Assembly (NCBI GenBank): GCA_036785375.1
Contig: JAWMAR010000063.1
Location: forward strand, 4,340,001-4,404,000
Length of the DNA: 64,000 bases
Direction of reading: 5' to 3'
Source: Leucoraja ocellata
Lineage: Eukaryota
The notes under the pieces are model-generated. The model was not told the DNA's origin. It ran no database searches and worked only from the letters and a program-made list of their open reading frames with translations. How positions within the stretch are numbered: the stretch's first letter is position 1; each line of letters begins with the position of its first letter. A program made the position numbers and the translations under genes. Of this stretch, positions 6,281 to 48,104 are shown in pieces.

Positions 6281-6470
6281 TGTGTTCAAGAAGGAACTGC
6301 AGATGCTGGAAAATCGAAGGTACTCAAAAATGCTGGAGAAACTCAGCGGGTGCAGCAGCATCTATGGAGCGAAGGAAATAGGCAACGTTTCGGCCCGAAA
6401 CGTTGCCTATTTCCTTCGCTCCATAGATGCTGCTGCACCCGCTGAGTTTCTCCAGCATTTTTGTGTACCT
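6281..6470. mobile_element. Fold-back (palindromic) mini-PLE with 14-bp TSD
   Basis: Arms 6318-6393 and 6395-6470 (76 bp, 1 mismatch, 1-nt centre). Unpaired 37-nt tail at 6281-6317. Flanking direct repeat CCGTGTCTAACCCT at 6267-6280 and 6471-6484. Confidence 0.9.
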
Positions 6471-6734
6471 CCGTGTCTAACCCTGACGTTCGCAATATTC
6501 CCATTGAGTTGAATGTCTGGGTTAAAATATTTTATTACGAACTATCTTACCGCAAGAACCAGCGAGGTGAGACAATCAAATTATATACGGTCAGTTCGGG
6601 CAAGCAACGGTTTCCTTTGGTGATAACCTCGATAATCTGACACCCAACCTCTCCCATCCTTTCTCTGCAATCATTTCTACAGTGGAAACCGACAACAACT
6701 ATTATCATTTGTTCTTTGTAGCTTTTCATACCTC

Positions 6735-22640: not shown

Positions 22641-23352
22641 CTTGAACATTGAATTCTCCAAATTCAAGGTAATACATCGCCCATCTCTTTCCCAACCCCG
22701 CCCTCCCATCCAAGTGCACACGCGATTCTAGTAACACTGCTCCTTCCCTTACGCTCATCTCCCATCCACGTCCCCATTTCCCCTTTATCCCGTTTCCCCT
22801 CTCTCCTCCCCCTTTCCACCCACATTGCTCCCTCTAGCCTTACAATTCGCTCTGCTTTCTCTCCTCATCTGACATCCTTTTGTATCCTTTTCACCTCTGC
22901 CCTTTGTCACAAGTCCCATCTGCTAATCAGACCCATCTTACCCACCTATTCCCAGATAGACACAAAATGTTGGAGTAACTCAGCGGGACAGCCAACATCT
23001 CTGGAGAGAAGGAATGGGGGGCGTTTCGGGTCGAGATCATTCTTCAGACTGGACGAGTCTGAAGAAGGGTCTTGACCCTAAACGTCACCCATTCCTTCTC
23101 TCCAAAGATGCTGTATGTCCCGCTGAGTTACTCCAGTTTGTTGTGTCTATCTAAAGTTTAAACCAGTATCTGCAAATTCCTTCCTACCAATTCCCAGGTT
23201 TTATCCACCCCTCTTTTTCAGCATTCCCCCCCCCCCCCCCCCCCGCCAACCCCAGTCTGTCCGAGGAAGGGTCCCGACTAGAAACGTTCCGTCCATTCCC
23301 TCCACAGATGCCGAATTCCTCCAGCACATTGTGCTTTGCTCAAGATTCCAGC
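22641..23352 (+). mobile_element. Older PLE 3' region (ORF end, pyrimidine-rich UTR, decayed hammerhead) hosting a nested element
   Basis: Starts TTG AAC ATT GAA TTC TCC AAA TTC (LNIEFSKF, a GIY-YIG C-terminus), then a C/T-rich UTR, then CCGAGGAAGGGTCCCGACTAGAAACGTT. Confidence 0.72.
22956..23186. mobile_element. Nested fold-back mini-PLE with two back-to-back hammerhead cores
   Basis: Imperfect arms 22954-23050 and 23056-23152 around a GGACG loop, with a one-sided tail 23153-23186. TSD CC(T/A)ATTCCCAG at 22945-22955 and 23187-23197. Confidence 0.85.
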
Positions 23353-31196: not shown

Positions 31197-31384
31197 TTTA
31201 TTTGTTGAAATATATTGAATATTGAGAAGTTGCAGAATTTTGCAGCAGATTCAGACCAAGTCCGCAAACTTGCATGATCAGGGATTAAAATGCAAATACT
31301 CTTTTAATGATATGTTAAGTGTTAATGGTTGTCAATCAACAGACCTGGAATCAAAACATGACTATTATAAATTCTTAGGCCCCC

Positions 31385-31772
31385 TTTATTCATGGCTGAC
31401 CATGGGTGTCTCCAGGGTTGGACGCCAGTGCGTGACTTTGTTTAACGTGGGGAGACTGCTGCACAGACAGCCAACATGCGGTCCTTGACAGATCTGGGTC
31501 AGGATCCAGTGGCATGGAGTCCAAGACGACCGGCGACCCTTTTCGGCTGCAGCCTTCATCCACCAACCCAGCCGTTGTGACGCTACACTAAGGTTAGCCA
31601 TCATCCTCCGCCTGTTCCACCGTTGAGGTAGTTTGGATTGCTCTTTATCAAAGTCCTCCCCTTCGACCTTTACCATCATGGGTGGCCCTACCAGGAGTAT
31701 AGCTCCAGACGGCATCGCTCTCAGGATCTCAGGACCACACGAGCTTCTCCACCACGACAAGGTGACAATCCA
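31385..31772 (-). mobile_element. RTE-derived ~390-bp non-coding element with HDV-like ribozyme fold (copy B)
   Basis: Colinear over its full length with 46167-46560. The 5' part GGATTGTCACCTTGTCGTGGTGGAGAAGC resembles BovB/Rex3 (RTE clade) 5' ends as recalled. Confidence 0.75.
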
Positions 31773-33785
31773 CAATCCATAATTGTAAACATTCCAAATT
31801 TCAGATGTTCATATTTCATTCCTAGTTCTCAACCCCATCCAGTCTTTCTCTCTGTTTATTTCCCTATCTATCTGATATGACTTTCAATTGACTTACTTCA
31901 AGCTCCTTAAAGCTCTCACTGTTTATTTCTGTCTCTCCAAATCGCTCCCCAGTTGTTTGTCTTATTTCCGCAGACGCACTGCCCTGTTCACTTGCAGCGC
32001 CACTATCAGTTTATACTTTCAGCAATCTCACAGATTATGTAATGTGGGCAAGTCTAATTTTCAGCAAAGATCTGCATAACTGTTTGATCTAACAATTGAT
32101 ATGCTGATGGAACCAGAGATTATAGACTGTGAGGTGAAACATAGAAAGCATGAACACCGGCTGAATGTGCCCATAAAGCCCATGCAATTCTGCACTTCCA
32201 TCTGTGGCTTTACCCTCTCCTTTATATTGATAAGTCCTCCAAATAGGTTCTCCATGTTCATTCACAACTTTAATAAAATGCCCCTTCTGACCTGTTAACC
32301 TCTGTGTTTCTTAGACACTGGCTGCATCTCTTTGCATTCCAATTTTTACCACTTAAAATTTACAAGCCTCTTTTCATTTGTTTTAATGGAGTTTGTCTGT
32401 AGTTCATACAGGCATCTGTGCATTTCCACTGTGTATCTAGCATCAATTTGTGGTGTAGATTATATTTGCCCTGTCTGCCAAATGCATAATAATTCCACTG
32501 CGAAGAAACAATCAGCCTACTGTATATACAGGCAACCATGTCTAAGCAAAAATTATTCCAACGGGTTCTATATGTTAAATGTTACATGTCTAAAGGAAAT
32601 GTAAACACATTATTTTAATATAATGATTTTCACATTGTGAGTGACAGTATTACATAAATTTGCAAGGCTTTCAACACAATTAATCTGATGATGTTAAAAG
32701 CCTTTTAGTTAAAAGCCTAAGTGGTGTAAGGCATAGTTTATTTTAATAAAGCATGCATAATTAAGCACATCACCATATACTATTCAAAGTATAAATTATT
32801 ATGTACAAATACATAACTAAATCACATGCTTTATACCAAAATGGCACAGTCAGTGTGAACCTCACCATAGAATAAGGTCTTCTTTGTGAATAGTTCATTA
32901 AGAGAGCACACATGTACACGAGTGGACATATTGAAGTTAATGGCATGTGTTATACACTTATAAGCTGGTAAATCTCGGGCATCACAGAGTGAAATATCTT
33001 TTTTTTTCCATTGACGAAATGGTTGTACATTTGGACGCGTGCATACTCACTGTTAATTCTTGTTTATGGTCTGCAGAGTTCGAACATTTAAAAGGGAAAG
33101 ATAATGAATGAGCAGAGAAATGAGTCTGAAGTAATAGTCTTGTTGAAAAGCTGGTACTGAGACAGGAAACATAAGTTGTATGACCTTCTTGTGTAATTTT
33201 GATGCCTGTTGTACCCAACTACTAATGTTTTTTTTTTAATCAATTAATATTGCAGTCATGGACAGTGCTAAGAATTATTCCAGGTCTGGCAAACTACCAT
33301 TTTCAGTGCAATTACACAAACACCTAATCCATTCCTTTCTATTCTTCTGTCTATGTTTAATGGAGGTTTAACCCAGAAATATTGAATGGATGGGTAAAGA
33401 GTGCAGGTATTCATGGAGTAACATTACAATTGTAATTCCCATGTGTATATTCCTTGATAAACTGGCAAATTCAATGCACATTTCAAATTTTGATCCAATT
33501 TTGCCAATGGCTTATATGGCAAACATGTAAAAATATTTACTTTCTCCTCATTTAAAATTAATGACCCATGAATATGATGCAAGTTAATTTGCTCTTTGAT
33601 TTTCTCATTTTTACACTGGATAATTCTCAATAGCCTGACATGCACAAAATAGGATTCACCTACTACTTCTGTACTTGCTAAACTACACGGCCAAGAAAGG
33701 CTTGACTTTAAAATTCTCCTTATTGCATTCAAATCTTCCCTTTGCCCCTTCCCACTTCCGCGGGCTCTTCTGGTTCAACATTAAA

Positions 33786-46112: not shown

Positions 46113-46158
46113 CCCCCGTCGCGGTTTTCCTTTCATTGTCATAGCATGTCCCTATAGT

Positions 46159-46560
46159 CATCTCCATGGATTGTCACCTTGTGGTGGTGTAAAAGCTTGT
46201 GTGGTCCTGAGATCCTGAGAGTGATGCCGTCTGGAGCTATGTTCCTGATAGGGCCACCCATGGTGGTAAGGCCAAGGGGGAGGACTCTGACGAATAGCAA
46301 TCCAACCAAGACCTCAATGGTGGAACAGGCGGATGATGGTTACTGACCTTAGGTGGAGCGTCACAACGGCTGGGTAGATGGATGAAGGCTGCGGCAGAAA
46401 AGGGTCTCCGGTCGTATTGGACTCAATGCCATTGGATCCTGACCCAGATCTGTCAAGGACCGTGTGGTGGCTGTCTGTGCACCAGTCTCCCCTCGTTAAA
46501 CAAAGTCACGCACTGGCGTCCTCCAACGCTGGAGCCACCCACGGTCAGCCATAAGAAATA
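46159..46560 (+). mobile_element. RTE-derived ~400-bp non-coding element with HDV-like ribozyme fold (copy A)
   Basis: Homologous to 31385-31772. TGGATTG (46167-46173) pairs with CAATCCA (46298-46304). CGAA at 46291. 3' hairpin GACCGTGTGGTGGCT/AGCCACCCACGGTC. Confidence 0.75.
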
Positions 46561-47018
46561 GGCAATGGTATACGATATTACACAGACTACACAACATTAG
46601 CAACATGTTACGCAGAGGAGCCCTCAAAAGTTCCCCCTGAAAAGTTTCCCGCACAGAAACGTTTCCTTTGTTCCACTTACCTCCCTCACCACCTTCTTTG
46701 CTCTCTATCCAAGCTTATTTCTCCCTTTCTCTGCAGATGGATCCCAAATCTAAAACATTCATTATTTATCTTTTCCCAGATTCTGCCTAACCTGCTGAAA
46801 TTTTCCAGCGTTACACAGAAAAGCTGGAGAAACTCAGCGGGTGCAGCAGCATCTATGGAGCGAAGGAAATAGGCAACGTTTCGGGCCGAAACCCTTCTTC
46901 AGACTGATCGGGGGTGGGGGTGGGTGGGGACAAGAAAGGGAAAAGGAGGAGTAGCCAGAAGGCTGGAGGGTGGGAGGAGACAGCAGGGGAGCTGAGGAAG
47001 GGGAGGAGACAGCAAGGA

Positions 47019-47162
47019 CTAACAGAATTGGGAGAATTCGATGTTCATGCCCCGGGGGTGTAGAGTCCCCAAACGGAATATGAGGTGCTGTTCCTCCAAT
47101 TTCCGGTGCTGCTCGCTGTGGCCATGGAGGAGACCCAGGACAGAGAGGTCGGAGGCGGAGTG
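47019..47162 (-). pseudogene. PLE GIY-YIG endonuclease C-terminal fragment (open, ends at TAG)
   Basis: Manual translation HSASDLSVLGLLHGHSEQHRKLEEQHLIFRLGTLHPRGMNIEFSQFC*, matching the R..E...I..L.T..P.G.N GIY-YIG signature. Confidence 0.85.
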
Positions 47163-47324
47163 GACTCTACACCCCCGGGGCATGAACATCGAATTCTCCC
47201 AATTCTGTTAGTCCTTGCTGTCTCCTCCCCTTCCTCAGCTCCCCTGCTGTCTCCTCCCACCCTCCAGCCTTCTGGCTACTCCTCCTTTTCCCTTTCTTGT
47301 CCCCACCCACCCCCACCCCCGATC

Positions 47325-47358
47325 AGTCTGAAGAAGGGTTTCGGCCCGAAACGTTGCC
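47325..47358 (+). ncRNA. Minimal hammerhead ribozyme motif (mirror copy on the minus strand at ~46872-46905)
   Basis: CTGAAGA (47328-47334), an extra A, stem II GGGT-TTCG-GCCC, GAAA, palindromic stem III AACGTT, and a predicted GUU cleavage triplet. Stem I is very short. Confidence 0.7.
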
Positions 47359-48104
47359 TATTTCCTTCGCTCCATAGATGCTGCTGCACCCGCTGAGTTT
47401 CTCCAGCTTTTCTGTGTAACCTTCGATTCTCCAGCATCTGCAGTTCCCTCTTAAACACGAAATTTTCCAGCATTTGTTTTGTTTTCATTTTGTAGCAAAA
47501 TGCTAGTTTTCTTTTGCAGTTCGACCTGTAAGGATTGTTTTCATAGAACATCATGTAACCGCTGTGGGATGATGGGAATGTTGATGTAGAGCTCAAGGTT
47601 TTCAACAACATATGGATGAATGAGTAAAAGGTGTTAAAATTTATATATTATTGATTTACACATATGAGGATTGGGAATTACTCCATGGGAATCAATTGCA
47701 ATTAACATTATCTCAAGGTTGTAGAGCCAAACAGCGTTAGAATGGAATATTTTCTGAAGAGGACCATGTACATAAGTGCCGATACAAAGTAGCAATTAGA
47801 TAAAATAAGTTTTCATCACAAATAGTAGATACAGTAAAGGATTATCGGCAGCTGCCCTGGTGAAACCATAACTGCTTTCCAGAATTTTAAAGCGTAGAAG
47901 TAACCGATAATTGAAATTGAAGCTGGTGAAAACCACTTAATGCCTATTGTAAAATTGGATATCATCTTTATCTGCCGAAATGCTACACTTATTAAAAATA
48001 ATTTAATTCTGCGACCAGAACCACCACATATCTCGGAGGGTATGAGGAGATGTGGTGAGGACTGTTCAGAGCTGGTCGGAGAGGGGGGGGGGGGGGGGGG
48101 GAGG

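Follow-up and report, generated by a model that had tools for sequence, protein, structure and literature searches.

Two copies of a sequence of about 400 bp lie on opposite strands of one 64,000-nucleotide stretch of Leucoraja ocellata DNA (hereafter the window), and they raise the question of whether they are chance remnants of a larger retrotransposon or a unit that spread in its own right. The first-pass annotation had taken them for a ribozyme-headed, promoter-less element analogous to the short internally deleted elements (SIDEs) of R2. Our preferred reading is that both copies, A and B, are decayed remains of a protein-less hybrid of ~410 nt, in which the 5′ UTR of one RTE family (X) is joined to a tail matching a second family (Y), and that the RNA was likely freed by a predicted HDV-like ribozyme and likely copied by the enzyme of family Y. 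Taken as a whole, we consider this statement probable: it combines a hybrid, non-autonomous RTE anatomy of which we are highly confident with self-cleavage of the head in some form, which we hold to be likely.

Copies A and B are 87.6% identical over 387 aligned nucleotides, and their edges are sharp and common to both. The true ends lie further out than the first-pass coordinates: the ORF-less element is some 30 nt longer than first delimited. Reading 30 fetched copies, which are the best full-length matches and hence a biased sample, we found that intact copies start ~8 nt earlier, at CTTCTCC (written (C)TTCTCCGTGG), and end ~20 nt further on, in CCTAAGAA(GAA)n. The common end at GGTCAGCCAT, once taken as the end of the element, arose by accident, through loss of ~15 nt from copy B and substitutions in copy A. 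A first look at the element's own genome (3.44 Gb) gave 2,736 candidates, of which the best 40 were scored; leaving aside the locus itself and one 99% duplicate, these showed 89-92% identity. Divergence from the majority sequence of 82 heads is 7.8% in both window copies. Copy A has lost its first ~7 nt (the 5′ strand of helix P1), with a short duplication of the start in their place; the terminal stem-loop of its tail is damaged, and a target-site duplication (TSD) script found only a chance-level 6-mer in its flanks. The locus of copy A occurs twice in the assembly (L002, G000:C329:535285-535680, 99% including flanks), and as many other loci are also paired, the assembly may hold duplicated haplotypes. 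The window also contains long inverted repeats at 46810-47420 (610 bp, 90%), 6315-6473 (159 bp, 97%) and 22954-23152 (199 bp, 84%), which are common repeats back to back; the first of these starts 250 nt past copy B. Table 1 collects the coordinates.

Table 1. Features of the two element copies, in window positions.
Feature	Positions	Strand	Remark
Copy A, whole element (type 1 hybrid)	31372..31781	-	
Copy A, head part	31415..31781	-	from comparison with family X loci
Copy A, junction 12-mer, also in the endonuclease-coding region of family X	31403..31414	-	
Copy A, family-Y-type tail with a GAA-type repeat at its end	31372..31408	-	
Copy A, candidate 5′ target-site duplication	31782..31789	-	8 nt, 1 mismatch, by eye, uncertain
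Copy A, candidate 3′ target-site duplication	31364..31371	-	
Copy A, predicted HDV-like fold, P2 5′ strand to P2 3′ strand	31634..31773	-	
Copy A, predicted P3/L3	31751-31763	-	
Copy A, predicted P1 3′ strand and P1.1 base	31743-31750	-	
Copy A, predicted J4/2 and P2 3′	31634-31649	-	
Copy B, whole element (type 1 hybrid)	46161..46557	+	~15-nt deletion in tail
Copy B, remnant of family-Y-type tail	46536..46557	+	
Copy B, candidate 5′ target-site duplication	46154..46160	+	7 nt, 1 mismatch, by eye, under script threshold
Copy B, candidate 3′ target-site duplication	46558..46564	+	
Copy B, predicted HDV-like fold	46161..46304	+	
Copy B, predicted P3/L3	46176-46188	+	

The element is not a SINE with a tRNA, 5S or 7SL head and Pol III transcription, a possibility rejected for want of a small-RNA-derived head together with A and B boxes. 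No tRNA was found in any of six loci scanned, one of which holds copy A; none of four copies has a B box, and each has a single A-box-like match with one mismatch. The longest ATG frames of four copies differ (109, 59, 85 and 78 aa), so that no shared ORF is present. On these points the first-pass annotation was correct, and its description of the element as promoter-less stands for Pol III boxes, the one promoter type covered here. Its claim of a long terminal hairpin in copy A, decayed in copy B, did not survive folding against shuffled sequences: the whole element gave z = 0.06 (A) and 0.49 (B), and the last ~118 nt gave z = +0.54 (A) and -1.83 (B). Among seven sequences folded whole or at the 3′ end, none beat its shuffles, the best z being -1.83.

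The first ~365 nt of the element, its head, are the 5′ UTR of a LINE family, X, in the same genome. A pattern for a GAT-repeat tail (tail 2), from which the short-element junction was excluded, gave 208 matches; most of the 20 that were read are LINE 3′ ends with a zinc-finger-like C-terminus, and walking upstream from them led to full-length, decayed copies of X. Two of these loci (L136 and L143) carry the same head followed by more UTR, an endonuclease and a reverse transcriptase (RT). Frame fragments from the decayed copies match Pfam RVT_1 (E=2e-27) and Exo_endo_phos_2 (E=3e-5), and X has the RTE layout of a single ORF with AP endonuclease and RT, in the order read along L136. Its placement in the RTE clade would follow from the likeness of the 5′ UTR to Repbase RTEs: by eye, the head resembles the 5′ UTRs of RTE-3_Crp, RTE-7_PM and RTE-1_AC_1 as given in the supplement to PMC5786205. 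Across 18 extended X loci, some of them duplicated, the head matched copy A at 82-90% as one full-length match in 13 and partially in the other 5. Short-element heads and X heads differ at only 5 majority positions in 359. None of the 18 loci carries the window's tail; 11 reach the 3′ end, all with tail 2. Because X 3′ ends all carry tail 2, a sister element with head X and tail 2 (type 2) is a plain internal deletion of X.

The window's tail has another source. Comparison with the 3′ ends of full-length RTEs, as proposed at first pass, did yield a match, to the last 33 nt of family Y (91%, E=5e-9), after the stop of a zinc-finger-ending RTE ORF. Families X and Y show no significant DNA similarity and are 28-45% identical at the amino-acid level in the C-terminal part. 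Among 38 Y loci the tail is present in 33, Y's own unrelated head in 3, and head X in none. Since head X is joined to a Y-type tail, the window element is a hybrid SIDE and not a plain internal deletion; a simple internal-deletion derivative was rejected for the window type, whose tail occurs in 0/18 X loci and whose head occurs in 0/38 Y loci. The SIDE analogy of the first-pass annotation thus holds, with the correction that the window type draws on two families and not on the internal deletion of one RTE. The element accordingly has a LINE-derived 5′ part, a LINE-derived 3′ part with a microsatellite, and neither ORF nor small-RNA head, as in bipartite non-autonomous RTEs and SIDEs. Y also has its own short element of ~430 nt, with an unrelated head and a TAC tail (L165, L168-L170, L174 and L178, around 1501-1960 or the mirrored place), and at L184 and L185 a few more bases of the end of Y's ORF are retained.

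The hybrid tail differs from that of Y in one loop base (C in 24/24 versus T in 20/21) and in the repeat unit (AAG versus TAC), fixed differences that leave room for a possible third, unseen donor. Two pattern searches aimed at a LINE that ends in exactly the window element's tail retrieved only short-element variants, in 11/11 loci read for one and in the 30 read of 84 listed for the other; a third gave 115 matches, mostly family Y with the TAC repeat among the 30 read, and no LINE with the window's tail among them. Twelve nucleotides across the head-tail junction also occur in the endonuclease region of X, where 6 of 7 copies have 11-14 nt exact. The chance of such a match in 4 kb was estimated, post hoc, at ~2e-4, and the 12-mer is possibly a relic of a template jump.

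That the unit is discrete is seen from its junctions. The exact motif at the head end occurs 305 times in the genome followed by A (type 1, the window's type) and 824 times followed by another base, counts that are minimum figures where copies have diverged and that duplicated loci have raised. The first 30 of the 824 in genome order comprise 17 with tail 2 (GAT repeats), 12 of type 1L, which is type 1 plus 13 nt, and one mutated type 1. None of these 30 runs into an ORF, and at least 20 of them keep the full head, compared with 2 of 38 X LINE copies found via the RT region. Full-head hits numbered 116, of which 82 were left once duplicates were removed. Among 57 short copies with a locatable tail end, 26 have TSDs of 7-13 bp with a score >=7, against 13 of 338 mismatched flank pairs. 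Mean divergence from the subfamily majority is 4.5-4.9% for the short types, with type 1 sampling that favours close copies, and 6.6% for LINE heads. The short elements show amplification of their own, with TSDs and fixed junctions, as expected of a bipartite non-autonomous RTE or SIDE; together with the parent LINE, these results bear out the first-pass idea of a discrete RTE-derived unit. At its head-tail junction, one type 1L copy (L100:861-1560 in element orientation) is split by ~310 nt of inserted sequence, accompanied by a 14-nt duplication.

Comparison between families gives the first ~147 nt of the head an HDV-like nested double pseudoknot with helices P1, P2, P3 and P1.1. In the X head, P1 is CTTCTCC/GGAGAAG, P2 is TGGATTGT/GCAATCCA, P3 is ACC/GGT, loop L3 is TTGTCGT and joining region J4/2 is a C followed by adenines; the P2-P3 junction is irregular, with a bulge or mismatch. 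The J4/2 C and the L3 bases U20 and G25 are present in the X majority and in two further families of the genome, W and V. U20, G25, a P1.1 of one pair plus U-U, the C at the catalytic position and two J4/2 adenines match CPEB3 as described in the available part of PMC4836649. Family W, 69% alike, has P1 CTCCCCG/CGGGGAG, with three both-side changes relative to X; in all, four of the seven P1 pairs are changed on both sides, three of them from X versus W, so that P1 covaries between RTE families. In the elephant element RTE1-N1_LA, P2 and P3 are changed on both sides, as judged by eye from the supplement to PMC5786205. An 11-row alignment (four X, four W, one V and both window copies) has 91.7% of cells paired, against 36-49% with the partners slid; its rows represent only two or three lineages and the row for V is shifted by one column, for which reasons shuffle counts on it are not probabilities. 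Heads of this type occur in X, W and V and, judged by eye, in Repbase RTEs of crocodile, elephant and other origin.

The 5′ ends fit a boundary at this fold: position 1 of P1 is the start of 27 of the 82 full-head copies, and 50 begin at one of the first three positions. The base at position 1 is C, with G as its partner in P1, and not a purine. Just upstream, G is not enriched, the bases being A12 T7 C4 G3 in X (n=26) and T6 C3 A3 G3 in W (n=15). The core is intact in 25 of the 82 copies and in neither window copy. In copy A the putative catalytic C reads T (31647) and 3/7 P1 pairs remain; in copy B a conserved L3 C, beside G25, has become G (46183) and 4/7 P1 pairs remain. Both window folds are predicted to be inactive. 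Rfam returned no ribozyme hit in the window at gathering score and none for an intact copy at E<=10, with chance-level hits only for the intact X head and the Y head. A twister reading was rejected, as no Rfam twister model was hit and the pairing pattern is HDV-like. Family W is a second short RTE with a predicted ribozyme head, a TAAG tail and variable internal deletions (L153:44-563, L220-L249); its exact core has 492 matches, mostly W among the 100 listed. The head of V (L270:500-1016, minus strand) is a third, older one with the same core, P1 still pairing through wobbles.

Pairing between head and tail was also considered. An end-joining helix was rejected, its duplex energy beating shuffled tails (p<0.01) in only 1 of 15 tests. 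A 10-nt exact complement between head and tail is present in four of five intact hybrid copies (each with p about 0.01, though these values are not independent), in none of three type 2 copies and in neither window copy. It lies at head position ~181 of intact type 1 and 1L copies (31592-31601 in the window, mutated in copy A) and would pair with the tail stem-loop; the one loop base at variance with Y gives a standard pair there in place of a wobble. We regard this complement as a weak, post hoc lead to pairing.

If the preferred reading is right, a donor copy within a host read-through transcript would be cut by the fold at its first base; the 3′ stem-loop and repeat of the RNA would be recognised by the endonuclease-RT of family Y, as the identity of the tail suggests; and target-primed reverse transcription would produce the 7-13 bp duplications whose footprints are observed. 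The hybrid may have been born by template switching, the longer type 1L first and type 1 by a later 13-nt deletion, and two template jumps guided by microhomology would fit the junction 12-mer. RNA data from a probable relative (seven runs and one contig set), whose listed runs share few sequence words with the window, were aligned to two intact copies. In the seven runs reads lie in both directions, continue past the 5′ edge into unlike flanks (39, 91, 24 and 41 reads at that edge in four of the runs) and do not pile up with starts at the predicted cut site. Such a pattern is what read-through of old copies would give, and it is hardly informative on whether a young donor is cleaved.

A Pol II promoter inside the same hybrid might instead fix its 5′ end, or the fold might only protect the RNA or help translate it, the pseudoknot being structural or vestigial and non-cutting. 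We think this unlikely. A C at +1 breaks the purine rule, the RNA reads lack a start pile-up, bipartite LINEs are described in available text of PMC5786205 as probable Pol II transcripts driven by the 5′ extreme, and in L1Tc the same 77 nt are reported as both promoter and ribozyme (PMC3383444, in the part available). A promoter, however, needs no covariation of P1 with the first seven bases, and X, W, V and several Repbase RTEs have all retained U20, G25, the J4/2 adenines and a C at the catalytic position. The missing purine could alternatively be explained by a conventional ribozyme whose RNA begins with a G that pairs with the pyrimidine after P1 (an 8-bp P1) and is systematically lost at integration. 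The base after the P1 3′ strand is indeed one that can pair with G (C in X, W and V, T in BovB_Plat), and slight 5′ truncation is common, only 27 of the 82 copies reaching position 1. Yet any new copy lacking the G would be unable to cleave itself, and the families nevertheless spread; P1 is typically 6-7 bp (excerpts of PMC3774820); in BovB_Plat the base in question changes with L3 position 22, from G-C to A-U, as for a P1.1 pair (one case, by eye); and the Vingi heads in the supplement to PMC5786205 keep their 5′ G run. We hold systematic loss of a G to be improbable.

Two further readings concern the anatomy itself. The element could have come by simple internal deletion from a sister of X, unseen or extinct, with a native Y-like tail and GAA repeat, in line with the two fixed differences from Y's tail, with a short motif shared by X and Y tails that shows how RTE tails can be alike, and with genome searches made by exact patterns or best-40 lists. 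Against such a sister, the three exclusion patterns returned short-element variants or Y only (11/11, 30/84 and 30/115 loci read, with all 84 listed), and the five majority differences leave the heads very close to X; we judge it quite improbable. Chance 5′ UTR fragments of decaying LINEs would agree with the weak TSDs of both window copies, but hundreds of copies share the fixed junctions, the tail is foreign to the parent and TSDs are family-wide. With boundaries at true ends and no short copy of the 30 running into an ORF, this origin is refuted, and we give it practically no credence.

In one genome the parent LINE occurs together with its simple two-part derivative and two hybrids that carry the tail of another family. 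This natural experiment supports the idea that RTE heads are portable and that the copying enzyme is chosen by the last ~35 nt, a point relevant to retrotransposon-based gene insertion. If the C1 fold cuts, the rules for the HDV-like class are wider; if it does not, the 5′ ends of this RTE group are made otherwise. A bolder extension, which we put forward only speculatively and consider doubtful, is that this widespread RTE head is an active HDV-like ribozyme with inverted C1-G and P1.1 pairs that breaks the 5′-purine rule, a portable 5′-processing module that was transferred to the tail of a different LINE family and reached hundreds of copies with the help of the hybrid-only 10-bp complement.

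Self-cleaving RNA at the 5′ end of retrotransposons has precedents, and RTE ribozymes are reported in available extracts of reviews. In the RTE Perere-3 a twister ribozyme processes the 5′ end (excerpts of PMC8501958 and PMC7761336), as is predicted for our element by a head that has no Rfam twister hit and pairs in an HDV-like manner. With the HDV-like ribozymes of CPEB3, R2, L1Tc and RTE, as portrayed in the accessible parts of PMC4836649, PMC8495972, PMC6765202, PMC4908430 and PMC3774820, the predicted head shares the nested P1/P2/P3/P1.1 topology, a 7-nt L3 with U20 and G25, a one-pair P1.1 with U-U, a catalytic C followed by adenines, and a place at the element's first base; cleavage at the first base of P1 is described for the class (PMC4908430, in part). 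It differs in its first pair, C-G and not G-U or G-C, in a reversed P1.1 pair with the G in L3, in the irregular P2-P3 junction and in a P4 region of ~95 nt, and it is known here as a predicted fold. Within the available text, G1 is called invariant (PMC8495972) and a 5′ purine required (PMC11331408).

Bipartite non-autonomous RTEs have been catalogued (RTE-N1/N2_Lch, RTE1-N1_LA, RTESINE1/2, WALLSI3, MAR4_MD and Bov-A; Kojima 2018, PMC5786205), and the portions of that paper available to us tie retention of the extreme 5′ end to ribozymes. They resemble our element in lacking a small-RNA head and in joining an RTE 5′ UTR to a short piece of RTE 3′ end that finishes in a microsatellite, and RTE1-N1_LA has the same fold as the element head. 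RTE-N2_Lch, the sole case there with both ends spelled out, has one parent, as does sister type 2 and unlike the window type; tail exchange is described there for the SINEs WALLSI2 and IdioSINE2. In the literature as available in excerpt, we found no account of this hybrid family or of an HDV-like ribozyme with C1. A close parallel is provided by the hybrid R2/R1 SIDEs of Drosophila, whose ribozymes are active, with cleavage demonstrated (Eickbush and Eickbush 2012, PMC3414825, in the sections available). Like our element, they combine the 5′ end of one non-LTR family, with a ribozyme proven there and predicted here, with the 3′ end of another, without an ORF, and they move by the machinery of the tail donor, as would our element. 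There are also differences: both parts of our element are RTE, with dispersed insertion and hundreds of copies or more, and it keeps the whole ~365-nt UTR where the SIDEs keep the ribozyme and 5-8 nt. Bipartite RTE derivatives, hybrid SIDEs and RTE ribozymes were thus already known, so that the architecture is familiar and the copies themselves ordinary; new here are an RTE hybrid across families, dispersed and high in copy number, whose two donors can both be observed, and a fold predicted to be HDV-like yet lacking G1.
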